From a virus: a stretch of DNA of 64,000 nucleotides. The stretch is taken from positions 1 to 64,000 of IMG/VR virus record IMGVR_UViG_3300040801_001572. One strand, 5' to 3'. The notes under the pieces were generated by a model. It worked only from the letters and a program-made list of their open reading frames with translations, made no database searches and was not told the DNA's origin. The position numbers and the translations under genes were made by a program. This document shows, one piece after another, positions 299 to 17,202 of this stretch (positions are counted from its first letter, which is position 1; each line of letters starts with the position of its first letter).

Positions 299-579
299 AG
301 GTCCAGTACGTCAACGACGCCACACCACGTAGCGATGGGAGATCGGGTAAGCCCACGGGCATTACTCTCTTCCAGACGTACACTGTGGTCGCTGTTGAGG
401 GCGACAAATATGTTCTGCTCAACGACGACTACAAGCTTTGTCGCTATTCGCAGGCAAGGTTCTTGGTCACGAGCACACGTAAGATCGAGCCCATACGCAA
501 GGCTTTCAATTCACTGACACATCCCTTGCGTATGGAAGTCAAGCGGCTGAGGCAGTTGGTCACCGAACTAAACGGTTGA
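295..579 (+). CDS. hypothetical early protein
   Basis: coupled ORF; its TGA stop lies within the next TTGACA box. Confidence 0.65.
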   Translation: MKVQYVNDATPRSDGRSGKPTGITLFQTYTVVAVEGDKYVLLNDDYKLCRYSQARFLVTSTRKIEPIRKAFNSLTHPLRMEVKRLRQLVTELNG

Positions 580-627
580 CATTTCCATTCAGTTGTCGTA
601 CTATATGCACAGTTAGGACAACAGGAG
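576..627 (+). promoter_or_regulatory. sigma70-type early promoter with CAGTTAGG leader
   Basis: TTGACA-17-TACTAT then cagttaggacaacaggag. Confidence 0.85.
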
Positions 628-635
628 TAACAGCT

Positions 636-1085
636 ATGGGCTGGTGGGATTACGGTATTATGGGCGGTGACACTCCGCTCGATATGCAGGCACGTTTCGA
701 CGAGAAGTTCGGCTTCGTAGACGAAGAGTACGATCCGGTAACGCCTGCAGTGTTGCCGACCGGTGCACAAGTCGAAGACTTCATGCGCAACGAGCAGCCG
801 GACTGGTGTTACAACCTGGGCTACGAAAATATCTGGCCACAGGTGATCGGTTACCTCGTTATCGACCATAAGCTCGAGATGACCGACGCTGTGCGAGCTG
901 CTGCCATCAAAGGTGCCCAGGACGAGATCGACTCGATCCAGAAAGACAACCTGGACGGCTGGAACTCACCCTGTGAACGTACCGAACGACTGAAGGAGTT
1001 CATCGCTGTAGTCGAGGTGTACGACGGTACCCAGGAAGCGCCCGAGAGCAAGGGCTTGTTCGAAGCAATGGCGGAGGCACTGTAA
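636..1085 (+). CDS. hypothetical acidic protein (MGWWDYGIMGGD...)
   Basis: GGAG SD before ATG 636; the track start at 576 lies in the promoter. Confidence 0.8.
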   Translation: MGWWDYGIMGGDTPLDMQARFDEKFGFVDEEYDPVTPAVLPTGAQVEDFMRNEQPDWCYNLGYENIWPQVIGYLVIDHKLEMTDAVRAAAIKGAQDEIDSIQKDNLDGWNSPCERTERLKEFIAVVEVYDGTQEAPESKGLFEAMAEAL

Positions 1086-1357
1086 TGGAACTCTCCAACA
1101 ATGCAATGATGGTCTTGGGAATCTATCTGGGCCACAAGTCACATGCTCGCCGATCAGAGTGCGAGCACGTAGGCTGCGATTACGATAGCGGTGTTGCTGA
1201 ACTTGCCAAAGCAGGTGTAATGCGAGGTGGCCGTATCAATCGCAAGGAAGGCTATGCTGTGTTCCACGAACGCTTCCCCGATCAACTCGGAAGTCAAACA
1301 CACCAGTATCGCCACAAGTTGGGATTTCCTTACCCGGGAGAAACACAAAGTCGATAA
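1085..1357 (+). CDS. hypothetical protein
   Basis: TAATG overlap with upstream gene. Confidence 0.65.
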   Translation: MELSNNAMMVLGIYLGHKSHARRSECEHVGCDYDSGVAELAKAGVMRGGRINRKEGYAVFHERFPDQLGSQTHQYRHKLGFPYPGETQSR

Positions 1358-1365
1358 GTACTAGC

Positions 1366-1611
1366 ATGAAGTATATCACGTATAAGAACGAAGACGGTCA
1401 CAAGACCATGGTTATCTTCTGCGTGACTGAGCAACATGCCCTTATCGCCCAACAGATGCACGTTACGCCGCTGAGTGCAGGATTCATTAACATCACTGCA
1501 GACTGTGGCCAGGTGTGCGTAGAGATCGAATGCTACGGTGAGTCAACAAGTCTTGGATTGACTCCAACCGAAGAAGACAGTATACTAGCTCGTAAATTGT
1601 TAGACCTCTAG
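1366..1611 (+). CDS. hypothetical protein, paralog of 2823-3116
   Basis: KYI...VIF...H...AGFI...CYGxSxSLG shared with 2823-3116. Confidence 0.8.
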   Translation: MKYITYKNEDGHKTMVIFCVTEQHALIAQQMHVTPLSAGFINITADCGQVCVEIECYGESTSLGLTPTEEDSILARKLLDL

Positions 1612-1623
1612 CAGGAGGATCAC

Positions 1624-1869
1624 ATGTTCAACACACCAATGCCCCAGGTACGGTTTCGTGCCGGCGACGATCGCACCCTGTACACCAATGTAAACTTTGC
1701 ACGTGACGTCGCACAGGGCCTGGCCAACACTTCCGGTGTGCCTGTTCCTATTCATCACGTAGTGAACGGCAAGCAAGGCATGATCCTGCACGATGTTCAT
1801 CCAGAGAAGGGCGAACAGAATGTGGTTAGCTTCTTTGGTCGAGTAGCGGAGAAACTGCGTCGTGGTTGA
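1624..1869 (+). CDS. hypothetical protein
   Basis: AGGAGG SD. Confidence 0.7.
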   Translation: MFNTPMPQVRFRAGDDRTLYTNVNFARDVAQGLANTSGVPVPIHHVVNGKQGMILHDVHPEKGEQNVVSFFGRVAEKLRRG

Positions 1870-2044
1870 GTTCGTTCGTTTCGATGCTGATCCAAAGCTC
1901 CACATGGAACGGCATGTGGTGGCCGTAGGCTGTACGTTCTGGCAGAAGCTATGGCTGATTGGGTTCAGGGGCTTCCAGCCTCATCCCTTTCTGGGTGCCA
2001 AAGGTCACCCGTTTAAGCAGTATCCGATCAAACAAAAAGGTTGA
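1862..2044 (+). CDS. hypothetical protein
   Basis: overlapping GTG start; stop inside TTGACA. Confidence 0.55.
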   Translation: MVEFVRFDADPKLHMERHVVAVGCTFWQKLWLIGFRGFQPHPFLGAKGHPFKQYPIKQKG

Positions 2045-2087
2045 CATTTCCAGCCAGACCAAATATCATATACTTGTTAGTTAGGAG
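2041..2087 (+). promoter_or_regulatory. sigma70-type early promoter
   Basis: TTGACA-17-TATCAT, ttagttaggag leader. Confidence 0.8.
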
Positions 2088-2100
2088 TTTGGAGAAGACC

Positions 2101-2376
2101 ATGTCACTAGATAGGATCATTGAGCGAGTTAACGCTCGTCGCCAATTCGAGAACGAGTTCTGCACTGGTGCTCGTCGCGAGATGATCGCTCACCCTCTGG
2201 AGTCGGACGACATTGAGTCGCTCTGCTGCCACATCGAGAGTGAGCTCAGTCCTGAGAATCTTCACTGCGACGGAGAAATTTCTCCTCGCGAAGCCAAGCA
2301 CAAAGCCGAAGCACTGCACCGCGCATACGACGAGCTGTGCCAGCGCTATGCTTGTGTGCGGGAGTTGTACGTATGA
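2101..2376 (+). CDS. hypothetical protein (LSPENLHCDGE motif)
   Basis: GGAG SD, ATG 2101 downstream of promoter. Confidence 0.75.
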   Translation: MSLDRIIERVNARRQFENEFCTGARREMIAHPLESDDIESLCCHIESELSPENLHCDGEISPREAKHKAEALHRAYDELCQRYACVRELYV

Positions 2377-2591
2377 CTGAGTATGGTATTGCGACGCCCA
2401 GCGCTCGTGTTAAGATGCAGGGCTTGAGCAAAGAGGAAGCTTTTGCCTACATCGAGACTGAGGGGCAAAGCGGTGAGTTCGTAATTCGCAAGTGCCCGCC
2501 GGGTATGGGTTATCCCAAGGACGAGTGGTATGCAACTGCTACTGGTCATACCCTGGGCCAGATACGGTACGCACTAACGCTGGAGAATTAA
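2373..2591 (+). CDS. hypothetical protein
   Basis: ATGA overlap at 2373. Confidence 0.65.
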   Translation: MTEYGIATPSARVKMQGLSKEEAFAYIETEGQSGEFVIRKCPPGMGYPKDEWYATATGHTLGQIRYALTLEN

Positions 2592-2592
2592 T

Positions 2593-2669
2593 GCCCTGGT
2601 AGCTCAGCTGGATAGAGTAGTGGCCTTCTAAGCCATCGGTCGGGGGTTCGAATCCCTCCCAGGGTGCCA
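2593..2669 (+). tRNA. tRNA-Arg(TCT)
   Basis: cloverleaf: GCCCTGG/CCAGGGT acceptor, GTGGC-cttctaa-GCCAT anticodon arm, GTTCGAAT T-loop, encoded CCA. Confidence 0.95.
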
Positions 2670-2822
2670 GTTAGAAGAGACCTCTCGGTGTATGCACACC
2701 GGCTGGAGCCAAAACTCGCATTATCAGTGTAGCTACCCGGGAAGGGTTATACTGATACTAAGGCCCGGTCAAGCGCAGACAAGATCTGTGAGAGAGGAGA
2801 TTCTTTACCAGAGAGGCAAGAC

Positions 2823-3116
2823 ATGAAAGACGTTAAGTACATTGCATTCGAGAACGAATTCGGCAACGACGATCTTGTGATCTTTTCGAACCAGGTTATC
2901 CATTCCGAAATGGCTCGCAATCGACGGATCTTCCGTGAAGTGACGGGTGCTGGATTCATTCGCATTGGTGCTGACACGCACGGTGTGACTGTTCACTGTT
3001 ATGGCAAGAGCGAAAGCCTAGGTGTCGAAAGTCGCGGAGAGATCGATTCCAACCTCGCCCGACGTGTACTGGATCTGCCCAGCAACGAGCGGAAAGTTTT
3101 TGAACAAATAGGTTGA
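2823..3116 (+). CDS. hypothetical protein, paralog of 1366-1611
   Basis: GAGG SD; shared motifs; stop inside TTGACA. Confidence 0.8.
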   Translation: MKDVKYIAFENEFGNDDLVIFSNQVIHSEMARNRRIFREVTGAGFIRIGADTHGVTVHCYGKSESLGVESRGEIDSNLARRVLDLPSNERKVFEQIG

Positions 3117-3141
3117 CAAGTGTTGGCAGCATTGCTATACT
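3113..3141 (+). promoter_or_regulatory. sigma70-type promoter for putative ncRNA
   Basis: TTGACA-17-TATACT, not followed by an SD and credible ORF. Confidence 0.85.
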
Positions 3142-3147
3142 ACACTT

Positions 3148-3589
3148 GCACGGCGCAGTAGCGACAATGGTAAGACTACGTTCGGTAGTCAGCAGGTTTA
3201 GCACAATACGCTAGGGCGAGGATAAGGGGCCCACCTGCAATGAACACAACTGTTAGGAGAGGGTACAGAATACCTTCCACTAGCGAGGTATAGCAGAGCA
3301 TACCGCGGAGCAATCCCCGGATAGCACTGTTCGGCAACAAGCCGGCGAGCCAGGCAAGATGGCCAGGCAAGCGCCTGCTACGAGACGAAAGTCTGCCGCG
3401 AAGCTAGTATCTCCTGTCCTAACTGAAGGCCTGCGGATGAGTTATGGGCCACGGTGAATCAACGCACCGACCCATGACAAAGACCTTCCTAACAGAAGTC
3501 CGCTTAATCCCCTACGCCGGGGCCAGCAGCCGACACCCTGTACGGCGCACCCGGCACCCTTTAGCCCGCCATATGGCGGGCTTTTTTTT
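3148..3589 (+). ncRNA. putative large structured non-coding RNA (family unrecognised)
   Basis: own promoter and terminator, no credible ORF; helices 3174/3185, 3192/3233, 3250/3486, 3291/3375, 3442/3471; GNRA loops at 3310 and 3387. Confidence 0.65.
3563..3589 (+). terminator. intrinsic terminator
   Basis: agcccgcc-atat-ggcgggct + T run. Confidence 0.9.
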
Positions 3590-3591
3590 GG

Positions 3592-3641
3592 TTGACAATA
3601 ATCTCCATCCAGCTTATACTGTGCACAGTTAGATAAGAGGA
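3592..3641 (+). promoter_or_regulatory. sigma70-type early promoter
   Basis: TTGACA-17-TATACT, cagttagataagagg. Confidence 0.85.
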
Positions 3642-3648
3642 CAGCACA

Positions 3649-3999
3649 ATGGCAACTGAAGTTTACTTCACTGCAAAACAATCATACAATCCTGTGGGTT
3701 CCAGTCACTGGTTTACTTTTCCCCAGGAACTGCAGGAGACTGTGGATCGTGTGGTGTTTATGCATACGGACTCGGAAGAGCCTGAGATCCGTGCGCTGGC
3801 AAACGATGTATACCAGGACGAGGATTCCGACTACAGTGACCGTATGTGGCTGCGTTGTGGAAGTCGACTGTACGTGCTGTATCGTCGCCAGGGCGAATAT
3901 CGTGTTGCCTCTGGGTTTGATCATTCGGGCGACGCTTCCGTTATGTGGCCCTTTGACAAGGACGAAATCATTGCACACTTTGCTGCATACGCGGAGTAA
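3649..3999 (+). CDS. hypothetical protein
   Basis: SD + promoter. Confidence 0.75.
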   Translation: MATEVYFTAKQSYNPVGSSHWFTFPQELQETVDRVVFMHTDSEEPEIRALANDVYQDEDSDYSDRMWLRCGSRLYVLYRRQGEYRVASGFDHSGDASVMWPFDKDEIIAHFAAYAE

Positions 4000-4002
4000 G
4001 CT

Positions 4003-4299
4003 ATGGTCGCAAACACACGAGTAACACTGCCGCAATGTCGTAGCTTGGACTACTGGCATAAAGAGTACACCAGCTCTGACGGTGTAACCAAGTACACGGT
4101 GCACCTCACACACGACGAGCGTCAGTTCTCCTGTGAGTGCAAAGGATTTCAGTATCGTGGCGACTGCAAGCATGTGAAGCAGGCAGCTCAGGACTACTGT
4201 GGTTGGTGTGCACTGTGGTGCGACGAGCCATACGAAGAGAGTTCCAAGAAATGTCCTCGCTGTGGGGACGAAGTTGATTTCAGAAATCATATGGTATAA
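4003..4299 (+). CDS. SWIM-type zinc-finger protein with C-terminal zinc ribbon
   Basis: FSCECKGF...CKH; CGWC...CPRC. Confidence 0.75.
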   Translation: MVANTRVTLPQCRSLDYWHKEYTSSDGVTKYTVHLTHDERQFSCECKGFQYRGDCKHVKQAAQDYCGWCALWCDEPYEESSKKCPRCGDEVDFRNHMV

Positions 4300-4301
4300 T
4301 C

Positions 4302-4511
4302 ATGAGCTATCCGAATTTCAAATATCTGGTCAAAGTGTTCCAGCCCGGCAACGACTGTGCTGTTGATCACTTCGATCAAGTGTTCCCTAACCCGGTGAGC
4401 AAAGGTGATACCGTTTGCTTTGGCGACGAAGCACTCGAAGTTGATCGTGTTGTTCACCACAACGAACGCGGTGCCACGTGGAGTGAAATCCACTTGACAG
4501 AACACAACTAA
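4302..4511 (+). CDS. hypothetical protein
   Basis: operonic ORF. Confidence 0.6.
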   Translation: MSYPNFKYLVKVFQPGNDCAVDHFDQVFPNPVSKGDTVCFGDEALEVDRVVHHNERGATWSEIHLTEHN

Positions 4512-4543
4512 TCTGTTACTATAAGTACAGTTAGGATTCGAGG
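4494..4543 (+). promoter_or_regulatory. sigma70-type early promoter
   Basis: TTGACA-17-TACTAT, cagttagga. Confidence 0.8.
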
Positions 4544-4551
4544 ATTATGTC

Positions 4552-4770
4552 ATGGCAAGTTTGAAGAAAGCTATCGAAGAAAAGTGCAAGGATTGCATTT
4601 ACGACGACACCAAAAACTCTGGGCTAGGCAGCTGGCGCCAGCAAGTTGAGGCTTGCCCTTGCACCGATTGTCCGCTTTGGCCAGTTCGCCCGGTCACTGT
4701 GAAGACACGGAACGCCAACCGAAAGTCAAAGGGCGGTGATGACAACATTCCTACCAAGGAGGTAGCATGA
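4552..4770 (+). CDS. small Cys-rich protein
   Basis: CKDC...CPCTDCPLW; SD GAGG. Confidence 0.75.
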   Translation: MASLKKAIEEKCKDCIYDDTKNSGLGSWRQQVEACPCTDCPLWPVRPVTVKTRNANRKSKGGDDNIPTKEVA

Positions 4771-5105
4771 GCAACTCAGTTCGAGCCATTATCGTATTCG
4801 CTTTTGCGATGACACTGTTTACCATCGCCAATGTGGCCACTGCTGATTCCATCGACGACTTTCAGCAGTCGCTGCGAACCTTCGATACAGAGGTACTCCG
4901 CGAAGTAAAACAACCGGTCCGTCACGCGGCATCAGTGAGTGCACTGGTGGTATCACTACAGACGGACCTCCTGGGGAACGACAATGTTCAAGCTCCGTTT
5001 GATATCCGCGAGGTATCACAGCATACTGGTCGAGTTAGCCGCCAACGAGACAATCTGGCAACTGCCGCTCGCCGTGTTGATGTGTTCTTGAGATCCATTA
5101 GATAG
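4767..5105 (+). CDS. hypothetical exported protein
   Basis: N-terminal signal-peptide-like segment; AGGAGG SD. Confidence 0.7.
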   Translation: MSNSVRAIIVFAFAMTLFTIANVATADSIDDFQQSLRTFDTEVLREVKQPVRHAASVSALVVSLQTDLLGNDNVQAPFDIREVSQHTGRVSRQRDNLATAARRVDVFLRSIR

Positions 5106-5189
5106 TTGGATCCATTCTTCTGTTGCAATCTGTCACGGATGGCAATATCCTTTAACTGCACTTTGAACTAACCCCAAGGAGGAGCCTAT

Positions 5190-5552
5190 ATGGCAGGTGC
5201 AAAGACCAACACGAAGAGACGTGTTACCAAGAAGGAGCAGGCTTTCAAGATCTTCGACGCGAAACTGAAGATGCGAGCAGCCGGCAAGTTCGACAGCAAC
5301 AAGGCATTCCGCAGAGCCTGCCTGGATGAGATGGTCAAGAAGATCGGCGTGAGCATTCCGTCTGCTGCTACCATGTACAACCAGGCCAAGCAGGCTGCAG
5401 AAGCTGACAACCCGAGCCTGGGCCTGGGTCGCGATCCCAAGAAGGTTGTGGTCAAGAAGCCCAAGGCAAAGGCAAAGGCAAAGGCAAAGCCCGCTGCACA
5501 GCCGGCTGAAGCTGAGACCCCTGCGGAGAGCAACGAAGAAGCAACTGCTTAA
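5190..5552 (+). CDS. small basic putative DNA-binding protein
   Basis: K/A-rich; AATMYN matches AATLYN of 11680-12039; (AAGGCA)x4 repeat. Confidence 0.75.
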   Translation: MAGAKTNTKRRVTKKEQAFKIFDAKLKMRAAGKFDSNKAFRRACLDEMVKKIGVSIPSAATMYNQAKQAAEADNPSLGLGRDPKKVVVKKPKAKAKAKAKPAAQPAEAETPAESNEEATA

Positions 5553-5570
5553 TCGCTGCCCTGGGAGAAT

Positions 5571-5601
5571 AAAAAGCCCGCCCTGTGGTGGGCTTTTTTT
5601 T
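5571..5601 (+). terminator. intrinsic terminator
   Basis: aagcccgcc-ctgt-ggtgggctt + T run. Confidence 0.85.
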
Positions 5602-5603
5602 GG

Positions 5604-5650
5604 TTGACATTTATATCCATCCATCTTATAATGTGTTTGTTAGCTAGGAG
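5604..5650 (+). promoter_or_regulatory. sigma70-type early promoter
   Basis: TTGACA-17-TATAAT, ttagctaggag. Confidence 0.85.
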
Positions 5651-5657
5651 TTTGGAT

Positions 5658-5978
5658 ATGAAAATGTTCGAAATTGACAAAGGCACCCCTGCATTTCGCA
5701 TCACTCCGAAAGGTGAGATCATCACCTGGATTGTGCGCAAGGACCTTTGCTACGGTGACATGAACATTGCTAGCATGCCTTACCGGTATGCTAACAAAGG
5801 CTCGGCCGATACGCTCGATTACTTGGGCGACCTGGGCATGACACTGGATGCCATCAAATGTGTACTCAACAAGCTGGATCGTTTCTCGCTGTTCTGGGAA
5901 GAAGGTACGCAGACAGGCGAACCCCACTTCTTACTAGTAGACGATCGCTATTGCCGGCTCATGGGAGAAGACCAATGA
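5658..5978 (+). CDS. hypothetical protein
   Basis: SD; ATG 5658. Confidence 0.7.
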   Translation: MKMFEIDKGTPAFRITPKGEIITWIVRKDLCYGDMNIASMPYRYANKGSADTLDYLGDLGMTLDAIKCVLNKLDRFSLFWEEGTQTGEPHFLLVDDRYCRLMGEDQ

Positions 5979-6196
5979 CTCAAGTACCAAACTTTCCAGA
6001 TTCTGGAATCCCCTCAAACGAGCCGGACTACAGCTTCTTCGAGGAACAGTTCTGGCAGATGATGCGGGCACTGGAAGAGAGGCATTGCCAGCGAGAAGAA
6101 GTGCTCAACCGTGACACTGTACGTGCTGCGTACAATGCCTGGAACCAACGCTTCGGCACTGACATGGTGCCCAGGTTTGACGAGGAGAAGTGGTAA
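5975..6196 (+). CDS. hypothetical protein
   Basis: ATGA overlap. Confidence 0.65.
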   Translation: MTQVPNFPDSGIPSNEPDYSFFEEQFWQMMRALEERHCQREEVLNRDTVRAAYNAWNQRFGTDMVPRFDEEKW

Positions 6197-6618
6197 TGAA
6201 AATCGAATATTCATTCTGGTCGATGCTCACTGCTCGACGCAAGTGGTTCCGCAGTCGGATCAGCGATACGCCGATTCGCAACGTGTGGCTGAGCCTGTTC
6301 GACGAAGGTAAGAAGCTGCTGCAGAGCCTGGGTTTCTTTTTGCTCTGCCTGCTGGTTTGTCTTCTCAGCCCGCTGATTCCGCTGTGGCCATACTTCGCTG
6401 CATTCTGCAGTACCTGCATGAACTATCGCAGGGTGCCCACTGTGTGTGAGAAAGACTATGCCTTCGTGCAGAGCATCGATCGGGAGAACGTGTACAAGAT
6501 CAGGAACAACCTCAAGTTGTTGAACACCAAGAAGGAACAATACGGCGTGGACAACATCACGGCTCGTGAATACTGCGAGCAGGCGCTGTCGGTGCAAAAA
6601 CTCAAAGGAGTCGAGTAA
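6196..6618 (+). CDS. hypothetical membrane protein
   Basis: central hydrophobic segment; TAATG overlap. Confidence 0.65.
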   Translation: MKIEYSFWSMLTARRKWFRSRISDTPIRNVWLSLFDEGKKLLQSLGFFLLCLLVCLLSPLIPLWPYFAAFCSTCMNYRRVPTVCEKDYAFVQSIDRENVYKIRNNLKLLNTKKEQYGVDNITAREYCEQALSVQKLKGVE

Positions 6619-6884
6619 TGAAGCTGGTAGACTACTTCGTGATAATCGCACTGTGGTTTATGTACACGGTCAGCGGCATCTCAGCTGTCATGTATGGCCT
6701 GTATGCTGTCGCTGGATTCCTCAACAACCAAGGAGTCTTTGTGTTTACTGATGCCCATGTGTCTGTAATCACATACGCCCTGCTGTTTGCGATGACCAGC
6801 GGTTCGTGCCGGGCTACTCGAATCTCGCTGACTGCTGTCACTGAAGCACACAAGCCGGTACAGCCCCAGACCAGTACTGGTTGA
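6618..6884 (+). CDS. hypothetical membrane protein
   Basis: two hydrophobic segments; stop inside TTGACA. Confidence 0.65.
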   Translation: MKLVDYFVIIALWFMYTVSGISAVMYGLYAVAGFLNNQGVFVFTDAHVSVITYALLFAMTSGSCRATRISLTAVTEAHKPVQPQTSTG

Positions 6885-6927
6885 CAATTATCTCCAACCT
6901 GCTATAATACCTGCATAGTTAGGAGAT
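6881..6927 (+). promoter_or_regulatory. sigma70-type early promoter
   Basis: TTGACA-16-TATAAT, tagttaggagat. Confidence 0.8.
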
Positions 6928-6934
6928 CCAAGCA

Positions 6935-7453
6935 ATGGTCAAAGTAGTACTCACATCAACACCTTGCACTGACGTCGAGACGATCACTGTCAAGGTGCCC
7001 AAAGGCAAGAAGCCGACAGTTGCACTGCTCAAGGATGCAGTGAGCAAGGATAAGTGGAAAGAGATCCACGCTGCATCTGACGAGCTGCGTAAAGCTGGCA
7101 ATACACTTGCCGCTGCGTTTGCTGAGGTTCACAACGGCAAGAAGTACGACGACGAACTCAGCGGTGAGCTCACTGTTGCCCTGGACGAGATGATTGCTCC
7201 TCCGGTGCCCAAAGTGAAAGTCAAAGTCGGCAAGAAGAAGGACGGCACTACTGGTCCTGTTGCCGCTGACAAGAAGCCTGCTGCTACTAAGCCCAAAGGC
7301 AAGAGTGTAGCTGCGCAGGTTCGCGAGATGATCAAGGACAACCCCAAGCTGGGTATCCCCGAACTGATCGAACTGGTAGTCAAAGAAGGACTGCTGCCCG
7401 AAGGACGCGCCAAGGTGTATGTGCGCGAGAACGTGAAGAGGGTACGAGGATGA
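6935..7453 (+). CDS. basic protein with C-terminal helical (HTH-like) domain
   Basis: C-terminus resembles the tail of the SprT-like protein. Confidence 0.75.
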   Translation: MVKVVLTSTPCTDVETITVKVPKGKKPTVALLKDAVSKDKWKEIHAASDELRKAGNTLAAAFAEVHNGKKYDDELSGELTVALDEMIAPPVPKVKVKVGKKKDGTTGPVAADKKPAATKPKGKSVAAQVREMIKDNPKLGIPELIELVVKEGLLPEGRAKVYVRENVKRVRG

Positions 7454-7743
7454 GAAAGACCTGCCACGGTTGCCCTCACTTGCAGGTGCATCGTTTCGCC
7501 TTCATGGGTGTTATGCCCAGTTGTGGCGCTGTCGAAGAACCTTTCATTGTCCCCCATCGCAGCGAACTACAGTCGATGGCCGAAGCTGCATCCGACCAGG
7601 AGTACGAAGTTACGTACTGGCGAGTGCCGGAGGATTGTCCGCTGAGTGCATCTGAGGTGCACAAGAGCAAAGACAAGGCGCCTGTCAGTGATTGGCAATT
7701 GGTCACACTGCGTCTAGGTGACGTAGAGGAGTACACACCGTGA
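7450..7743 (+). CDS. small Cys-rich protein
   Basis: CHGCPH...C...CPL; ATGA overlap. Confidence 0.7.
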   Translation: MRKTCHGCPHLQVHRFAFMGVMPSCGAVEEPFIVPHRSELQSMAEAASDQEYEVTYWRVPEDCPLSASEVHKSKDKAPVSDWQLVTLRLGDVEEYTP

Positions 7744-7907
7744 AGTGCTATGTTGTGCAGCTGGCCGTGCAAGGAACGACCGAAGAACGAGTCGAGGCAA
7801 ACTCCGAAGCTGAAGCCAAGCAATTGGCCATCGAAGAAGCACGGCTTTCTCTTGATCACGCCAATGCCCGTGTCATCGACATTCAAGTCGAAGGAGACGA
7901 CGAATGA
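7740..7907 (+). CDS. hypothetical protein (55 aa, not in ORF track)
   Basis: GTGA/ATGA overlaps on both sides; VKCYVVQL...EGDDE. Confidence 0.65.
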   Translation: MKCYVVQLAVQGTTEERVEANSEAEAKQLAIEEARLSLDHANARVIDIQVEGDDE

Positions 7908-8125
7908 AGCGCTACTGGGACAAACCGAAGTACTTTACCTGGGAAACACGATGGTTCCTGCTCCAGATCGGAATCTCCGGTGACTGGCTGTGGTCGAACA
8001 CACAGACTGCTACTGCATTCGAGAAACGTACTCACTACTTCACGATCAGTAAAGTATCGCGTGGTGACCTCACTGCTGTGAGCGTGATCATTCTTCCAGT
8101 GAGCATCATGTTTGGCCTAGTTTAA
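7904..8125 (+). CDS. hypothetical protein
   Basis: GGAG SD, ATGA overlap. Confidence 0.65.
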   Translation: MKRYWDKPKYFTWETRWFLLQIGISGDWLWSNTQTATAFEKRTHYFTISKVSRGDLTAVSVIILPVSIMFGLV

Positions 8126-8127
8126 GG

Positions 8128-8180
8128 TTGACATCTCCATCCAACTGTCGTACACTGTGCACAGTTAGATAAGAGGACAG
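8128..8180 (+). promoter_or_regulatory. sigma70-type early promoter
   Basis: TTGACA-17-TACACT; 27 nt identical to the 3592 unit. Confidence 0.85.
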
Positions 8181-8184
8181 ACTC

Positions 8185-8787
8185 ATGCGCAACACGCTCG
8201 CTATTGAACTAATTACCAACGTGATGCAGGAGATACCTGCTGACCGTGCCCAGTCACTGCTGCAGGCCACTGTGAACTTCCTCGCTGTAGCAGAGAAAGA
8301 GAACCTTGCACATTTGCTGGTGCAGGTAGAAAGCCTGGAAGATGCATTCAGCGACATTCTCATCAACCGTGACAAGCTGCTGTCCGAGAAGGCGCCGGTG
8401 GTAGACATGCGTGGCTTCCCGCACATTGGCATGCCTGGAACCGGCAAGCATGAGCGTGTCACCGGGCTGTTCAAGACTGCTGGCATCGCTTCGCTGATCA
8501 CGAATTTCTACGACCTTGCCAGCGAGAACGACTCTACGGAGTACACCCTGGACGACTTCAACACTCGCATCGGTGATCAGCTGCGCAGTGCCGCTGAAGA
8601 TCTGGAAGACGGTGGCGGAGCGAGTTTCGATATGACTGACGTACATTTTGACGTCGAGGACGAGCTGGTACGCTCGGAACTTAACCAGGCCATGCACCGT
8701 GTTACCCACGCGATCATGATTGCCCTCCGCGAACGGGACGAAAGGAACATCCTGGACGCCCTTAACATGATGGGCGAGTCCGAATAA
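8185..8787 (+). CDS. hypothetical protein
   Basis: SD + promoter, 200 aa. Confidence 0.8.
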   Translation: MRNTLAIELITNVMQEIPADRAQSLLQATVNFLAVAEKENLAHLLVQVESLEDAFSDILINRDKLLSEKAPVVDMRGFPHIGMPGTGKHERVTGLFKTAGIASLITNFYDLASENDSTEYTLDDFNTRIGDQLRSAAEDLEDGGGASFDMTDVHFDVEDELVRSELNQAMHRVTHAIMIALRERDERNILDALNMMGESE

Positions 8788-8790
8788 CGG

Positions 8791-8841
8791 TTGACATTTC
8801 CATCCAACTGTCATACTATATACGCAGTTAGTTAGGAGATT
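8791..8841 (+). promoter_or_regulatory. sigma70-type early promoter
   Basis: TTGACA-17-TACTAT, cagttagttaggagat. Confidence 0.85.
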
Positions 8842-8846
8842 GCAAC

Positions 8847-9332
8847 ATGTTTGAGATTACCCAAGACCCCAAAGCTGCCGGACAACACTGGCCCGACGTT
8901 TCATACCGCGGCCACAACCTGTTCGACATCTACTGCGACGATAAAGAGATCGGAGACCTGATCAGTGATCAAGGTAACGGCCTTGACATTGACTGTCAGG
9001 AAAGCTACCTGGGTTACATTCCCGACGAGGACTGCTTCCTGTCTGGCTGGGACTGCTGGTACGACGATTCCAACGACTGCGATCACTGCTGGGGCGAAAC
9101 TGTCGACGAGGACACCGGTGAAGAGTGTACCCACTGTGATGGCAACGGTTACCTCGAAAGCGAGGACAGCGAGAACTTCAAAGGCTGCATGGCCAAGTTC
9201 GTGATAGACGACACAGGCAAGCTTTGTGTGCTCGAGATCATCCAGACCCACGGGCGCATGGTGTACTCGGACGATGTGCTAGCAGCCATGCACACTCGAT
9301 ACCCATCGTTGGTTGACCTTCGGTTGGATTGA
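8847..9332 (+). CDS. acidic protein with DnaJ-like CxxCxG zinc finger
   Basis: CDHCWG...CTHCDGNG. Confidence 0.75.
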   Translation: MFEITQDPKAAGQHWPDVSYRGHNLFDIYCDDKEIGDLISDQGNGLDIDCQESYLGYIPDEDCFLSGWDCWYDDSNDCDHCWGETVDEDTGEECTHCDGNGYLESEDSENFKGCMAKFVIDDTGKLCVLEIIQTHGRMVYSDDVLAAMHTRYPSLVDLRLD

Positions 9333-9367
9333 TCGTATACTGTGTGGGTTAGTTAGGACAACGGAGC
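9313..9367 (+). promoter_or_regulatory. sigma70-type early promoter
   Basis: TTGACC-17-TATACT, agttaggacaacggag. Confidence 0.75.
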
Positions 9368-9373
9368 AACACA

Positions 9374-9703
9374 ATGAACTACCTTCCTGTTAATGTATAC
9401 GGTGTACAGTCGGACAACACCTTTCTGTGCAGCGACAGCTCAAACTGTGGTGTGACCCTTACCCATCGTGACAAGCTGGTCGTGCCGCATGTCAGGGGCC
9501 AGTACACGGAGCAAGACGTCAAGGAACGTGGCATGGTCATCCTGGAACTGATGGAACCTGCTTTCCCTGGTTGCCCTCCGCGCTTCAAGCCTCAGGGCAT
9601 CGCAGGCCACGCAATGTTTGGTGGTCGCTACGTGATGGGTGACAGCCGGTTCACTGAGGCGTACAGTAAGCAGCCTGTCCAGGTACACGATCGGGTGGAG
9701 TAA
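9374..9703 (+). CDS. hypothetical protein
   Basis: SD + promoter; MFGG...DSRF...HDR motif. Confidence 0.75.
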   Translation: MNYLPVNVYGVQSDNTFLCSDSSNCGVTLTHRDKLVVPHVRGQYTEQDVKERGMVILELMEPAFPGCPPRFKPQGIAGHAMFGGRYVMGDSRFTEAYSKQPVQVHDRVE

Positions 9704-9805
9704 TTCACCCGGTCCAATTTGGTCAGAGAAATTTCTCAACCAGAATTGGTCACCCGGCCTAAACGGCTTAGACAAATAACCCAGGCAAGATAGGAGGCAT
9801 ACACA

Positions 9806-10018
9806 ATGATTTGGTACACTGTTATCATGCTGTGGTATGCTGTTGCCTGGGGATTCTTCCGTGCTATTGCTTGCGTATGTGCTGCTGCTGTGCTTACGTA
9901 CATGTATCCTGGTGACCACTGGCAAGTGTCAATGTACCTGTGGACTGTGCTTACTGTGCTGTGTGTAACGCCTAGTTTGCTTGCTGCTGTGGCTGCAGGA
10001 GTCTACATTGGTAAATAG
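9806..10018 (+). CDS. small membrane protein
   Basis: AGGAGG SD; hydrophobic. Confidence 0.7.
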   Translation: MIWYTVIMLWYAVAWGFFRAIACVCAAAVLTYMYPGDHWQVSMYLWTVLTVLCVTPSLLAAVAAGVYIGK

Positions 10019-10023
10019 CTAGT

Positions 10024-10413
10024 ATGAGCATTTCACTACTAGCTAACGTCCAAGAAACTGTCAACGCAATTGATCAAGGTCTTCGCCCAGTCGTAGACGA
10101 CGGACGCGGAGATATCTACGTACTTAATACCTCCCGCAAACAGTTCGGCAACTTAGTGTTCACGCAGTTCGATCGTAACACACTGTTTCCTATTGCTAGC
10201 TTCACAGTGAGATATGGAACTCAGCATGTAATCAACGAAGTCCTATTCGGGGCTTTCTCTAGCAGGCGACAACTCGAAGAGATCATCGACATGGAGATCC
10301 CTGGTCAGGTCCGAGAAGAGTTCGACCCACGTATCATCCCTGGTTGCACCCCTACCTTCCCAACTGAGGTTTCGGATACACAAGGTACCCCAAAGTTCAT
10401 ACAAGGTACTTGA
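10024..10413 (+). CDS. hypothetical protein
   Basis: operonic; stop inside TTGACA. Confidence 0.7.
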   Translation: MSISLLANVQETVNAIDQGLRPVVDDGRGDIYVLNTSRKQFGNLVFTQFDRNTLFPIASFTVRYGTQHVINEVLFGAFSSRRQLEEIIDMEIPGQVREEFDPRIIPGCTPTFPTEVSDTQGTPKFIQGT

Positions 10414-10460
10414 CATTTCCATCCAATGTGCTATAATGTGGCACAGTTAGATAGGAGATG
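10410..10460 (+). promoter_or_regulatory. sigma70-type early promoter
   Basis: TTGACA-16-TATAAT, cagttagataggagat. Confidence 0.85.
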
Positions 10461-10465
10461 CAGAC

Positions 10466-10777
10466 ATGATACAAGTAACGCTGATAGACCAGACGATTGC
10501 GAAGAAGCGCAGTGACGTTACCTTCACTGAGATCCTCAAGTACAAGTCACACAAGCTGCGCGTTCGTATCCGTAGCAATAGCTACGACTTCCAAAACTCT
10601 GCAGTCATTGACCGGTGGGATGGCGCCAAGTGGAACGTGGTATACACTATCCCCTACACTGCGATGACCACTCCGGACGGACTGGCAACTGTACGTGAGC
10701 CTGCAACCATGCTGGGCAAATACTTCCTGGATGATCGCGAGAAGCTGGTCAAAATGGCCCTGAAAATTATTTCCTAA
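10466..10777 (+). CDS. hypothetical protein
   Basis: SD + promoter. Confidence 0.75.
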   Translation: MIQVTLIDQTIAKKRSDVTFTEILKYKSHKLRVRIRSNSYDFQNSAVIDRWDGAKWNVVYTIPYTAMTTPDGLATVREPATMLGKYFLDDREKLVKMALKIIS

Positions 10778-10856
10778 AAGGGTTGACTTTCAATCCTAGT
10801 GAAGGCATAATGTGTTTGTTGGCTGTTAGGAGCCAGCGACACACAGGAGAAAGAAC

Positions 10857-11165
10857 ATGTTGCAAGAAATTCGCGTACAGATCAACGAAGCTGGTGACTA
10901 CTTTACCACTACGCCGTTCCAGCTGAGCCAGTGGCGCACTGGACTGAAGCTGGAGCACGAGACGGGCATGTCACTGTCACGTGGCCAGAAGGTATCAACG
11001 CACCTGCGCAAGCTGTTTGGCTGGAAGCGTTCAGTCAAGATCAGCACCATGTACAATGCGGTATGCCAGATCCAGAAGGACGTTGACGAGTCGCTGGGCC
11101 TGGAGCCGCGTGAGTTCCCCAAGCTGGGCCAGTACTGGAAAGACAAGCAAGAGAGCGCCGCTTAG
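10857..11165 (+). CDS. hypothetical protein
   Basis: promoter TTGACT-17-CATAAT at 10783; AGGAG SD. Confidence 0.75.
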   Translation: MLQEIRVQINEAGDYFTTTPFQLSQWRTGLKLEHETGMSLSRGQKVSTHLRKLFGWKRSVKISTMYNAVCQIQKDVDESLGLEPREFPKLGQYWKDKQESAA

Positions 11166-11193
11166 GCGCTCCACTCCCCAGGAGGATTCCAAA

Positions 11194-11496
11194 ATGGAAA
11201 TGGATTCACGAGACATCGGTCTGATGATCGTTGGTGTGCAAGAAGGCGTCTCAGTAACTGTGTGGCGACCTGGTACTAGCACTGTGCTGATCAAGGACCC
11301 TGTGACCTGGGTGGACCTGGACTGCTTCTCGGTTGACACGGAGATGACTCCGGACGAGATGATTCGCTACGTTGGCGAACGCATCCAGGAAGCCGATGAC
11401 CTGTGCGACGATGGTCAGCCCACCGAGTACGAAGAGTGGCAAGACTTCCACGGTGGTGACGATTGGGACCACGGCCAGTTCAACGACGGTTGCTGA
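11194..11496 (+). CDS. hypothetical acidic protein
   Basis: AGGAGG SD before ATG 11194; DGQPTEYEEWQDF. Confidence 0.7.
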   Translation: MEMDSRDIGLMIVGVQEGVSVTVWRPGTSTVLIKDPVTWVDLDCFSVDTEMTPDEMIRYVGERIQEADDLCDDGQPTEYEEWQDFHGGDDWDHGQFNDGC

Positions 11497-11679
11497 GGGG
11501 TTGACTTTTGGATGGATTAGTGCTAAAGGATTGGCTGGAAAATAATTTAAATTTCTGGTTGACGAAAGGCACAAGTTTCCATATAATTGTTTTTGAAAGT
11601 TAGGCATACACTGCTTTCAGGGCGTTGCGCTAGGCCCATACTAAACTAGACGCACTGACATATATCAGAGGAGATCACT

Positions 11680-12039
11680 ATGTCAAAGGCAAAAACCAAG
11701 CGCGAGATCGCTAACGGTGTTTTCAACAAGGCTCTGCCCACCCGCGAGAAAGTCGGTGATCGCAAGTTTCGCCAGAACGTCCTGGTAGCGATCGAGAAGC
11801 GCACTGGCGCCACTCGTCCGCAGGCTGCTACGCTGTACAACTTCGCCAAGAAGACTGCTGTTGCTGCCGGCCTGACCCCCGACTTCAGCCGCTCTGCCAA
11901 CACTGCCAATGTACCCCAGCCCGCCGAAGGCGACAACTGGAAGGCCGTGGACAAGGAGTCCGGCGAGATCCTGGGATACGGTCCGAGCCGCGCCAAGACC
12001 CGCGCTGCCTTCGAAGGTGCAACCGTCAGCAAGATCTAA
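11680..12039 (+). CDS. small basic putative DNA-binding protein, related to 5190-5552
   Basis: promoter TTGACG-17-TATAAT at 11559; AATLYN. Confidence 0.8.
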   Translation: MSKAKTKREIANGVFNKALPTREKVGDRKFRQNVLVAIEKRTGATRPQAATLYNFAKKTAVAAGLTPDFSRSANTANVPQPAEGDNWKAVDKESGEILGYGPSRAKTRAAFEGATVSKI

Positions 12040-12063
12040 CGCTGTCGGCCATCCAGGTCTTAC

Positions 12064-12087
12064 AGGGCTCTTCGGGGCCCTTTTTTT
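12064..12087 (+). terminator. intrinsic terminator
   Basis: agggctc-ttcg-gggccct + T run. Confidence 0.85.
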
Positions 12088-12203
12088 ATGGCCCCACTTG
12101 GTTGACATTCCATTCAAAAGATAGTAAGCATGGTTGGAAATTAATGGTTGACTTTCAACCTGCTGAATGTATACTAGTGGACAGTTAGGTAGGAGATGCA
12201 GAC

Positions 12204-12425
12204 ATGAGTTTAGACCTCGTTATTAAGTACAAAGCGCACAACGAACGCATCACGCAGATTCGTGACCTTGCTGCTGAAGCTGTGTTGCTTGAAGAAGCTG
12301 CTATACAAGCTGAGCGCAAGTTCGACCACGAGAAGGCGGAAGAGCTGCGCCACGACAAGCGCAATGCACAGAGCTTGATCGGTATGCTGGTCATTAACTC
12401 ACTCAAGGAACAAGGAGAGCTGTAA
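12204..12425 (+). CDS. hypothetical coiled-coil protein
   Basis: promoter at 12148; cagttaggtaggagat. Confidence 0.7.
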   Translation: MSLDLVIKYKAHNERITQIRDLAAEAVLLEEAAIQAERKFDHEKAEELRHDKRNAQSLIGMLVINSLKEQGEL

Positions 12426-12682
12426 TGGGCGCTGACACGTTCACAGCTACCGAAGCGGAAGTCGAGAAAGCTCGCATCGGGATCGAGATGCAGGCTCAGG
12501 CCGCTGGGTTGGATTTCGAAGACCCCAAGGTACGCCGGTTCCTGGACCAGATGATCGAGACCACCGCTGCCCACTTGGCCTGTGAGCGGTTCCAGCAAGA
12601 TGTGATCCATCGGGTCACTGCAGAAGGACACTGGTCACCCGATGGCTGCCAACACGTACACAAGCCCGAGGAGGAAGTCTAA
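12425..12682 (+). CDS. hypothetical protein
   Basis: TAATG overlap. Confidence 0.7.
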   Translation: MGADTFTATEAEVEKARIGIEMQAQAAGLDFEDPKVRRFLDQMIETTAAHLACERFQQDVIHRVTAEGHWSPDGCQHVHKPEEEV

Positions 12683-12846
12683 TGTATTTCGCAGTCTTCC
12701 TCACAGCGGTACTGATGGCGTCCGGGTTCAAACGTTTGCCCGATCAACCGGCCCTTGTTATCGCGGTTTCTATCATCTTCCTAGCCATGTGCCGGTCGGA
12801 GTATCTGAAAGATAAGAAACGGCGTGAGATTGAAACTAGTGGTTGA
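12682..12846 (+). CDS. small membrane protein (54 aa)
   Basis: GGAGG SD; stop inside TTGACA. Confidence 0.6.
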   Translation: MYFAVFLTAVLMASGFKRLPDQPALVIAVSIIFLAMCRSEYLKDKKRREIETSG

Positions 12847-12901
12847 CATTCCATCCAACTGTGCTATACTAGCGGACAGTTAGGAAACGAGGAGAACTGC
12901 A

Positions 12902-13132
12902 ATGGCAACTAACATGGCAACTGGTGAAGAGATGTTTGCCGCTGGCATGATGAATCTCGGAGGGTCTGGCTGCGGTACCTACGAGTATTTCTGGAGGCCT
13001 GGAACTACCACAGTGTACATGCGCAACATTGACACCGATGACATGCGCGAGTGGGGAGAGTTTGACACTGTGCCCGAGGATGCCGAGGAAGCCGAGGTAC
13101 TCATAGAATATATGGAAGGGGACGAATGGTAA
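12902..13132 (+). CDS. hypothetical acidic protein
   Basis: promoter at 12843; WRPGT motif shared with 11194-11496. Confidence 0.7.
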   Translation: MATNMATGEEMFAAGMMNLGGSGCGTYEYFWRPGTTTVYMRNIDTDDMREWGEFDTVPEDAEEAEVLIEYMEGDEW

Positions 13133-13293
13133 TGGAAAAGTCTACGAAGGTACGTTACTCCACTCGTAAGTATGACGGCGATGACCAGTATAGCTGGGCA
13201 GTCTTCGCCAGCAACCAAACCCACCCCGTGGTAACGGGCTGCTCTAGATCTGAAGCGCAGTACCACAAGAAAAAGCTCGAAAAGAAAGGTTGA
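13132..13293 (+). CDS. hypothetical protein (53 aa)
   Basis: RKYDGDDQYSWAVF; TAATG overlap; stop inside TTGACA. Confidence 0.65.
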   Translation: MEKSTKVRYSTRKYDGDDQYSWAVFASNQTHPVVTGCSRSEAQYHKKKLEKKG

Positions 13294-13346
13294 CATTTCC
13301 AACCAAGACGCTATACTAGTGGACAGTTAGGAAAGGAGCACGGAAC

Positions 13347-13775
13347 ATGAGCAACGAAGTCATCGAGCACATCAAGCAGATCAACGAAGAGAGCCGCAAG
13401 CGCATGGCCGACAACCCCAACCTGTTCATTGGTCTCCTCACTGAGGACCCCAACCACTGGGAAGAGTACAAGACCGTTGAAGAGTTCGAGGTGGCCATGG
13501 CCAAGGAGAGCTTCATTAACGTGTTCAAGAGCTACGAGGGCATCAAGCCTCGCTGGGAAGACTTCACCCACGAAGATGGTACTCCGATGACTTCCAAGGA
13601 GATCAACAAGATGACCTCCGACTTCATCGAGCGGGAGGAGAAGTGGGCACGGGAAGAGGCCGAGCGTGAAGAACGCGAAGAGCGCGAGCGTAAGGCCCGT
13701 GTAGCCAAGCAGGCTCGTGAGTGCACCCCTACACTGGGTGACGTGTTCGGTGACGTGCTGAGAGGTGCACTGTGA
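13347..13775 (+). CDS. hypothetical protein
   Basis: promoter at 13290; cagttaggaaaggag. Confidence 0.8.
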   Translation: MSNEVIEHIKQINEESRKRMADNPNLFIGLLTEDPNHWEEYKTVEEFEVAMAKESFINVFKSYEGIKPRWEDFTHEDGTPMTSKEINKMTSDFIEREEKWAREEAEREEREERERKARVAKQARECTPTLGDVFGDVLRGAL

Positions 13776-14005
13776 AGACTGTAGAGGGTGTCATTGGACT
13801 GAAGGTAGCCAACGGCAGTATGTCCGTTCAGGAAGCCGACAGGATGCTGCGGCACTATCGATCAGAGCTGGCGTTCATCCAAGCTGGCAAGGACGATACC
13901 GAGATCCCCAAGTTCCCCTGGGGACTAGCATGGGCAATCACTATACCTTGGTTCGTGTTCGGTGCAGTTCACATCTTCTACTTAGTAGCGGAGTTAGTAT
14001 CATGA
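13772..14005 (+). CDS. small membrane protein
   Basis: GTGA overlap; C-terminal TM segment. Confidence 0.65.
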   Translation: MKTVEGVIGLKVANGSMSVQEADRMLRHYRSELAFIQAGKDDTEIPKFPWGLAWAITIPWFVFGAVHIFYLVAELVS

Positions 14006-14385
14006 CCATATCCACAAAGTTTGGTAGCCGCTGGTACGAGTTCCCGAATCACAGTCAAGTCCAAGATGCATACGTGCTCTGGGGCGATGGCTGGGAGGAC
14101 GAGGAAGGTGACCAGGAGGCTTTCGAGAACGAAATGACTGCTCGAGGTATTGACTGGATCTTCGATGAGAGTGCCTTGGTGGATTCCTATGTCGACGAAG
14201 CACTGGAGGAATCGGAACTCGGGCAGCATTGCCGCTACATTGAAAGCCAGTTTGAAGGTCTGGCCCAGAGCGAAGACTATCCGATGATGCTCCAGGTGCG
14301 AGACTCCGAAGGTGGTCAGACCAACTGGCTGAATATCACGCCTCGCCAGGCCCAAAAGATCAAACAGATCCTCCGAGACGAGTAA
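14002..14385 (+). CDS. hypothetical acidic protein
   Basis: ATGA overlap at 14002. Confidence 0.7.
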   Translation: MTISTKFGSRWYEFPNHSQVQDAYVLWGDGWEDEEGDQEAFENEMTARGIDWIFDESALVDSYVDEALEESELGQHCRYIESQFEGLAQSEDYPMMLQVRDSEGGQTNWLNITPRQAQKIKQILRDE

Positions 14386-14460
14386 CCACTGTATAAATGT
14401 ACAGTTGACAAAAGTTTCCATCCTGCTATACTAGTGGACAGTTAGGTAGGAGATGAAACA

Positions 14461-14910: not shown

Positions 14911-14911
14911 C

Positions 14912-15097
14912 ATGTACTTCGACAACTGCGGACTCGTAACCGACGATCAGGGTGACCAGCGCATTTACATTGCCTGGAGACATGTGCACGGGATCATGAA
15001 GTGGCTCCAGGACGGGAAGTCCTACTTGACCTACCCTGGGCATTCATTCACTCGCCAGCAAGTAGGCTTCCTACTTGCTTACTATGGAGAGGACTAA
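14912..15097 (+). CDS. hypothetical protein
   Basis: GGAG SD. Confidence 0.6.
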   Translation: MYFDNCGLVTDDQGDQRIYIAWRHVHGIMKWLQDGKSYLTYPGHSFTRQQVGFLLAYYGED

Positions 15098-15098
15098 A

Positions 15099-15613: not shown

Positions 15614-15736
15614 CCAATTGATGCTATAGCCACCCAAAAAGAAATGGTCGAATAAATGGTTGACGTTGGGGCTGGTTGGATGTATCATGTGTTTTGTTAG
15701 CTGTTAGGAGCTAGCAACAACACACAGGAGATAGAA

Positions 15737-16846: not shown

Positions 16847-16884
16847 GGGACTCCAACCTCCCCCGACCGAACATCTCCTGACCT

Positions 16885-17178: not shown

Positions 17179-17202
17179 CACACTGCTAGCCCCCTACCCG
17201 AT

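Follow-up and report, generated by a model that had tools for sequence, protein, structure and literature searches.

A Candidate Structured Non-Coding RNA with Complementarity to the Shared Early Leader of an Uncultured Jumbo Phage

A unit of about 440 nt in the early region of this phage is described here as a self-contained, non-coding, and strongly structured RNA that has a promoter and a terminator to itself and belongs to no described Rfam family; the description is credible but unproven. Two segments of this RNA are complementary to the leader that the early transcripts of the phage share. We propose, tentatively and at somewhat less than an even chance, that the RNA acts in trans as an anti-leader/anti-Shine−Dalgarno (anti-SD) RNA that would damp the early regulon.

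Genomic Setting and Boundaries of the RNA Unit

The window analyzed here comprises the initial 64 kb of an IMG/VR virus record of 114,654 bp, and all coordinates refer to it unless another sequence is named. The CheckV completeness of the record is 31%, which corresponds to a genome of about 370 kb. The source phage is assigned to the PA5oct/RaK2 clade of jumbo phages; its baseplate wedge protein shares 43% identity with the homologue of Pseudomonas phage PA5oct and 33−35% with those of the RaK2-like phages and Atu_ph07. The early region (0.5−18 kb) consists of small plus-strand ORFs and is driven by about 19 near-consensus sigma70 promoters.

The unit is preceded at a distance of some 450 nt by a tRNA-Arg(TCT) gene (2593−2669), in line with the nearby tRNA mentioned in the earlier note on this DNA. 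It is a single isolated tRNA within the operon upstream. The whole record carries 42 tRNA genes spanning most amino acids, 41 of which are found at 79.8−114.2 kb, outside the window. The protein encoded immediately upstream of the unit (97 aa, 2823−3116) matches phrog_3988 and phrog_8320, both of unknown function, and has one relative, of 72% identity, found only on a pair of Logan contigs, each about 1 kb long. This match alone points to a closer relative of the phage. The 116-aa protein encoded downstream matches nothing but itself among 5.8 billion proteins.

The unit opens with a plus-strand sigma70-type promoter, TTGACA-17-TATACT (3113..3141), which agrees with the consensus at 11 of 12 positions and has a TG-extended −10 box. 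It is the sole promoter of the early region without the shared GTTAG leader downstream. At the other end there is a plus-strand intrinsic terminator (3563..3590), composed of an 8-bp stem with seven G−C pairs (3563−3582) and a U8 tract; on the minus strand no U-run follows the stem, and the terminator should therefore act on the plus strand only. Placing the start 7 nt past the −10 box and the end within the U-run, we infer a plus-strand transcript of approximately 435−443 nt (3148..3590). The near-consensus promoter, the strong terminator, and the non-coding unit of about 430 nt that the earlier note had described are thus all recovered, the span between the two signals being about 440 nt. 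The terminator and the promoter of the next gene form a cassette (3563−3620) of which a repeat copy is present at 5575−5632, and the terminator stems of the two copies differ by changes that preserve the pairing. The GC content of the unit is 57.3%, compared to 52.6% in its flanks.

The possibility that the unit is a folded mRNA for a microprotein was also considered, for example for the 32-aa ORF at 3359−3457 or the 15−17-aa ORFs at 3167 and 3240. Short ORFs are indeed present. However, no plus-strand ORF of at least 10 aa within the unit has an SD sequence within 16 nt, in agreement with the earlier claim that no SD accompanies a credible ORF, whereas every neighboring early gene has a strong AGGAG leader. 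In addition, the short ORFs sit inside stable helices, and the longest reading frames give no Pfam match. We consider a microprotein mRNA highly improbable.

Predicted Fold of the RNA

The plus-strand RNA folds with a minimum free energy (MFE) of −171.8 kcal/mol, corresponding to z = −4.22, and none of 100 shuffled sequences is as good; the minus strand of the unit gives z = −1.49. All five local domains of the plus-strand RNA are more stable than their shuffles, with z values from −2.2 to −4.4.

The 5′ domain (3170..3242, plus strand) is made up of a hairpin at 3174−3190 and a branched hairpin at 3192−3238; its z value is −3.44, and the MFE structure accounts for 77% of the ensemble. It is followed on the same strand by a hairpin at 3243−3292 (z −3.2) and by a central multibranch domain (3285..3413, z −2.5) with hairpins closed by GCAA and GAAA tetraloops, within which a tandem repeat of GCCAGGCAAG is found at 3349−3371. 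In the 3′ domain (3430..3512, plus strand, z −4.42) a GCGG/CCGC helix encloses a hairpin at 3441−3476 and a second hairpin that carries anti-leader site 2, described below. A GC-rich plus-strand hairpin (3516..3555, z −2.4) precedes the terminator.

A number of helices had previously been picked out by eye, and all of them are present in the sequence at the places given. Those that appear in the MFE and centroid folds are gactac/gtagtc (3174−3179/3185−3190), gcaggt/acctgc (3192−3197/3233−3238), and ttatggg..cggtg/caccg..cccatga (3442−3476), as well as gcgga/tccgc, of which the four pairs gcgg/ccgc (3434/3500) are formed. The two GNRA tetraloops, gga-GCAA-tcc and gac-GAAA-gtc, are likewise seen in these folds. 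For the helices atacct/aggtat and tagcag/ctgcta, on the other hand, the predicted ensemble contains competing pairings, and the same is true for the pseudoknot between actagc and gctagt, the sequences of which are present.

For comparison, 38 tiled windows of 440 nt covering the early region have folding energies between −110 and −159 kcal/mol, none reaching the −171.8 kcal/mol of the unit. Their background z value is about −1, and two of them (starting at 9681 and 10561) are at about −3.5. The RNA stretch is hence the most stable of the early-region windows, but its z value by itself is not unique. The two windows in question, 9681−10120 and 10561−11000, were scored with only 20 shuffles and may represent structured mRNA segments or further RNA elements.

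Search for Known Families and Homologues

An Rfam 15 cmscan of the whole window at the gathering score returns tRNA only, and a scan of 2900−3800 at E ≤ 10 with lax filters returns chance matches at the terminator only. The earlier statement that the RNA could be assigned to no family consequently holds, even at E ≤ 10.

GOLLD and ROOL are large, ORF-free, structured RNAs that are often carried by phages near tRNAs and occur mostly in Firmicutes and their phages. A link to these RNAs, which the earlier note had brought up, is not sustained: neither GOLLD (RF01998) nor ROOL (RF03087) gives a covariance-model match at the gathering score or at E ≤ 10, and a lone tRNA in an upstream operon is no signature. 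The RNA studied here is also smaller than either of them.

Bacterial RNase P RNA (RF00010/RF00011) was ruled out as well, there being no covariance-model match. The criterion for RNase P was the P4 helix formed from GAAAGUCC.. and ACAGAA..GGCUUA; the look-alike segments GACGAAAGUCUG (3384) and ACAGAAGUCCGCUUAA (3492) yield no canonical P4 when paired by hand. A tmRNA was rejected on the grounds that ARAGORN gives only the tRNA-Arg near the unit and Rfam gives no match, and an intron on the grounds that neither the Rfam nor the ARAGORN scan gives a match.

Homologues of the RNA were sought at several levels. Searches by blastn against 50,697 phage records found none, and BLAST against 20 records of related jumbo phages, four of them complete, gave only matches of 14−16 nt inside coding sequence. 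Scans of viral, metagenome, and genome contigs by way of the flanking proteins and a 20-mer scan of metagenomes revealed no homologue either. A two-motif scan of viral contigs retrieved tandem-repeat coding sequence only, and a scan for the phage-specific promoter module retrieved chance matches only. The covariance models of two domains, R1 and R2, found nothing in 21 relatives and PA5oct, and R1 together with BLAST found no homologue in 50 records that share the leader. The RNA is thus an orphan, with no homologue in any collection searched or in 71 related records.

The Shared Early Leader and Its Antisense Copies

About 18 of the early promoters are followed by a common leader, CAGTTAGG..AGGAG. 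The 18 promoter−leader units proposed as targets lie on the plus strand at 576..17290, with −35 boxes at 576, 1558, 2041, 3592, 4494, 5604, 6881, 8128, 8791, 9313, 10410, 10783, 12148, 12843, 13290, 14405, 15660, and 17233. Their transcripts open with (A)CAGTTAGG or TTGTTAG, and AGGAG and the start codon follow. At 11559−11680, a consensus-like promoter has an unusually long leader after it, about 90 nt that contain AGTTAGG and neither a nearby SD sequence nor a start codon ahead of the next ORF.

The RNA contains two plus-strand segments that are antisense to this leader. Anti-leader site 1, ATCTCCTGTCCTAACTG (3409..3425), is the reverse complement of the consensus early leader including the SD sequence. 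Anti-leader site 2, TTCCTAACAG (3486..3495), is predicted to present CUAACA (3489−3494) as a 6-nt hairpin loop. Together the two sites form a direct repeat of TCCTAACWGAAG with a spacing of 70 nt. For 16 of the 18 leaders the best duplex is anchored at 3426, and 13 of the 18 have a Watson−Crick complement of at least 8 nt, always at site 1 or site 2.

One shared 8-mer is expected by chance in about 2% of windows, and a stricter control based on 23-mer duplexes was therefore used. The 23-nt fragment containing site 1 pairs with the 18 leaders with a median duplex energy of −21.3 kcal/mol; ten leaders are at −20 kcal/mol or lower, and the best duplex is at −29.1 kcal/mol. The control set comprised 17,960 23-mers of the same genome, taken from 72 kb of the plus strand and 54 kb of the minus strand. 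The best median among them is −18.0 kcal/mol and the best count is five leaders, so that none reaches site 1, which corresponds to a chance of roughly p < 0.004 for a stretch of 443 nt. The complementarity of the RNA to the translation-initiation regions of the proposed targets is beyond chance and is the most informative feature of the unit.

The two sites differ in their predicted accessibility. Site 1 is paired in the MFE structure, with a predicted opening cost of 5.2 kcal/mol, while the CUAACA loop of site 2 has a predicted unpaired probability above 0.9 and an opening cost of 0.0. The first four bases of this loop match the YUNR pattern of antisense recognition loops. In the leaders at 10783 and 15660, GUUAGG can be read from the sequence as lying in a hairpin loop, which makes a loop−loop contact with site 2 possible.

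The RNA also contains leader-like segments in the sense orientation. One of them, CTGTTAGGAGAGG (3250..3262, plus strand), is an internal leader copy that includes an SD sequence and is not followed by a start codon. It pairs with site 1 at −17.2 kcal/mol and with site 2 through 9 perfect base pairs at −17.5 kcal/mol. A more degenerate leader-like segment, CAGTAGCGACAATGG (3156..3170, plus strand), is located at the 5′ end and pairs with site 1 in the MFE structure (helix P1, −10.3 kcal/mol). These sense copies could act as masks, belong to structural helices, or have been left behind by rearranged leader cassettes.

Proposed Mechanism of Early Regulon Control

In the mechanism that we propose, CUAAC in the open loop of site 2 would start the contact with the target, for some leaders through loop−loop kissing with a GUUAGG loop. 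Site 1 would then pair with the first 17−25 nt of most early mRNAs, from the conserved 5′ CAGUUAGG through AGGAG. Such pairing would block binding of the 30S subunit and/or make a duplex for RNase III, and as the stable RNA accumulates the early regulon would be damped or shut off. The internal sense copy at 3250−3262 and the RNA's own 5′ end might keep the sites covered until they are displaced by a leader that matches better.

The promoter and terminator consensus, the lack of a translatable ORF, the folding excess, and the non-chance complementarity are observed, while transcription itself, pairing in vivo, repression as the direction of the effect, and its timing are all features that we infer. 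Two points bear on them. The early-type sigma70 promoter of the RNA would fire together with those of the targets, which leaves the logic of a shut-off tentative. Moreover, the sense copies within the RNA bind the sites at −17 kcal/mol, and the complementarity could consequently serve folding or be the relic of an inverted duplication of the leader.

In an alternative reading, the unit is a transcribed but functionless remnant of one or more decayed early-gene cassettes, with leader fragments in both directions, and has been retained only because it separates a promoter from the terminator−promoter cassette as a spacer. The 5′ end (CAGTAGCGACAATGG) resembles a leader plus ATG minus the SD sequence when it is set against the leader of the next gene, leader fragments are present in sense and antisense, and the terminator is part of a repeated cassette. 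The lineage being an orphan, conservation of the unit is not demonstrable, which is counted in favor of a remnant. However, a near-perfect promoter with an extended −10 box has been retained, the GC content is raised, and each local domain is more stable than its shuffles on the transcribed strand only. The 17-nt site 1, furthermore, is an intact consensus rather than a decayed copy. A decayed protein gene was ruled out: when all stop-free segments were searched against the genome with tblastn, no trace of a former protein emerged, the sole match being the terminator−promoter cassette shared with 5575−5632. On balance we judge a functionless remnant to be improbable.

The anti-leader mechanism has its nearest functional models, by analogy, in RNAIII-type anti-SD regulators and in the P4 CI and P1 C4 antisense RNAs. 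RNAIII of Staphylococcus aureus is a multi-hairpin RNA of 514 nt whose C/U-rich hairpin loops are complementary to ribosome-binding sites in several mRNAs; pairing begins at the loops, blocks translation, and recruits RNase III, so that one RNA governs a regulon. RNAIII is bacterial, encodes a peptide (hld), and acts on targets without a common leader, whereas the present RNA is a phage-borne orphan whose proposed targets share a 5′-terminal leader. The P4 CI and P1/P7 C4 RNAs are phage antisense immunity RNAs that pair with repeated complementary leader sites of their own transcripts and thereby control a block of genes. They are 70−80 nt long, are processed from the transcript that they regulate, and act on one operon of temperate elements through termination or masking of translation. 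The RNA of the source phage, in contrast, is about 440 nt long, has its own promoter, belongs to a lytic jumbo phage, and would address about 18 separate predicted target transcripts.

In phage T4, the early shut-off is carried out by proteins, the nuclease RegB and the translational repressor RegA, which silence early mRNAs via GGAG ribosome-binding sites. The outcome proposed here is the same, with an RNA instead of a protein as the agent. In its boldest form, which we regard as speculative and rather unlikely, the proposal is that the early program of a jumbo phage has this large folded RNA as its master off-switch. Two anti-leader/anti-SD elements, masked by the internal leader copy, would capture the common 5′ leader ACAGUUAGGAG of about 18 separate early transcripts, as an RNA-only counterpart of RegA/RegB.

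Phage non-coding RNAs are given one sentence only in a 2026 review on jumbo phages (PMC13282480). Jumbo phages of the PA5oct/RaK2 clade produce abundant RNAs of about 450 nt, and the present locus offers a concrete and testable mechanism for one such RNA, namely silencing of the whole early regulon via the shared leader. Confirmation would bring an RNA-based temporal switch into phage gene regulation and would provide a compact set of parts (promoter, leader, and anti-leader RNA) that works with the host sigma70 polymerase.

Leader and Anti-Leader Elements in Related Phages

The locus also reveals a leader that is conserved across many uncultured phages. A complete relative of 328 kb (IMGVR_UViG_3300040801_001224, G003), the wedge protein of which is 47% identical, has about 17−20 consensus promoters at 6.6−21.6 kb that are followed by the same ACAGTTAGGAG. 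The distance of this motif to the −10 box is variable and that to the start codon is fixed, which indicates that the motif is a transcribed leader linked to translation. A pattern scan finds the promoter followed by ACAGTTAGGAG in at least 119 IMG/VR contigs. As judged from these matches, the early leader is not private to the source phage and appears to be common to a clade of uncultured jumbo phages.

Among 5,334 windows of G003, the top anti-leader window contains UUCCUAACUGU (9959−9971), an exact complement of the leader, in the non-coding 3′UTR of a 46-aa ORF. In the stretch around it (9741−10020 of G003), this ORF, which encodes a membrane protein, is under the control of a promoter without the shared leader, and UUCCUAACUGU is followed by a hairpin and a terminator. 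Other relatives speak against a general occurrence of anti-leaders. In two other complete relatives, G001 (minus strand) and G002 (plus strand), the 40−55 early promoters have a different shared leader, ACAT(C/A)GCAACAA(A)GGAG, and the 60−70 kb examined contain no contiguous same-strand anti-leader. Among the 25 partial loci that share the leader, anti-leader 8-mers on the same strand are not enriched (they occur at 4 loci, compared to about 3.8 occurrences expected).

A further stretch of G003 that was analyzed, 4857−5270, is free of ORFs and contains five direct repeats of TCAAGGRYTTAGGNTC spaced 30−40 nt apart together with one inverted copy. It follows two terminators and could represent iterons or another non-coding RNA.

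We have also considered that the locus might act at the DNA level, with AACTG/CAGTT and the two copies of GCCAGGCAAG as clustered half-sites of operators or iterons, or as a transcription-activated replication origin, in which case the transcript would be incidental or an R-loop primer. The −10 box of three to four early promoters is surrounded by a dyad whose AACTG half is in the spacer and whose CAGTT half is in the leader, the region holds several AACTG/CAGTT half-sites in addition to the tandem 10-mer, and the ORF-free stretch of G003 has its five direct repeats with CTTAGG. However, such a role is very unlikely: there is no AT-rich unwinding element, the GC content is above that of the flanks, and the folding excess is strand-specific. 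Furthermore, the dyad is found in a minority of the promoters, and the leader has a fixed spacing from the start codon but not from the −10 box.

Comparison with ncRNA002 of Phage PA5oct

The closest analogue of the RNA is ncRNA002 of PA5oct, although homology between the two is not demonstrable. ncRNA002 was described as an ORF-free "putative lncRNA" of 451 nt (MK797984.1, 21951−22401; Lood et al. 2020, PMC7318152) and accounts for 4.65% of the early phage reads (PMC7318152). In the surrounding unit (MK797984.1, 21904−22424) we find a sigma70-like promoter, TTTACA-17-TATTAT at 21904, that is absent from that paper.

The genomic setting and the build of ncRNA002 are matched by the RNA of the source phage. 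Both phages belong to the same clade, as the wedge proteins mentioned above indicate, and both RNAs are situated in the early/terminal-repeat (DTR) region, which consists of small plus-strand ORFs, at a distance of about 39 kb from the wedge gene. Each is an ORF-free RNA of about 450 nt, bounded by a sigma70-like promoter and an intrinsic terminator, with a GC content above that of its flanks. ncRNA002 has a folding excess of z −4.73 and, like the RNA of the source phage, is without an Rfam family. ncRNA002 is experimentally abundant. The predicted architectures of the two RNAs differ.

Direct comparison reveals no detectable sequence similarity. The Smith−Waterman score between the two RNAs is 19, compared to a shuffle mean of 19.0, and BLAST in both directions returns nothing, as do the R1 and R2 models in PA5oct. 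Homology to the second PA5oct RNA, ncRNA001, was rejected likewise. PA5oct does not have a shared long leader, and the anti-leader idea is thus not transferable to ncRNA002.

These observations bear on another explanation, namely that the RNA of the source phage is a structured non-coding RNA of the ncRNA002 kind whose role is unrelated to the leader. It might serve proteins as a sponge or scaffold, build an RNA-only assembly, or act as a ribozyme, and its leader-like segments would simply be parts of long-range helices. PA5oct, with no shared-leader system, still has an abundant RNA of about 450 nt. The folding excess is strong in each domain and GNRA loops are present; the sense elements pair with the antisense ones at −10 to −17.5 kcal/mol (helix P1 and the inverted repeats I1 and I3); and purine-rich and repeat motifs (the two copies of GCCAGGCAAG) could bind proteins. 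However, site 1 fits the consensus leader with its SD sequence (median −21.3, best −29.1 kcal/mol) better than it fits its internal partners (−10.3 and −17.2 kcal/mol). Neither a ribozyme nor a large-RNA family gives a match, and there is no protein partner or conserved neighbor, the two flanking proteins being orphans. We consider a role unrelated to the leader doubtful but deserving of serious weight, and retain the anti-leader RNA as the preferred reading.

In five Wroclawvirus genomes the core of ncRNA002 is near-invariant, and the changes are packed into two segments. No double compensatory pairs occur among these genomes, so covariation is uninformative there. Some of the Wroclawvirus records have small ORFs annotated over ncRNA002. 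The ncRNA001 unit of PA5oct (MK797984.1, 8208−8498) likewise has a sigma70-like promoter, TTTACA-17-TATACT, which is absent from the paper.
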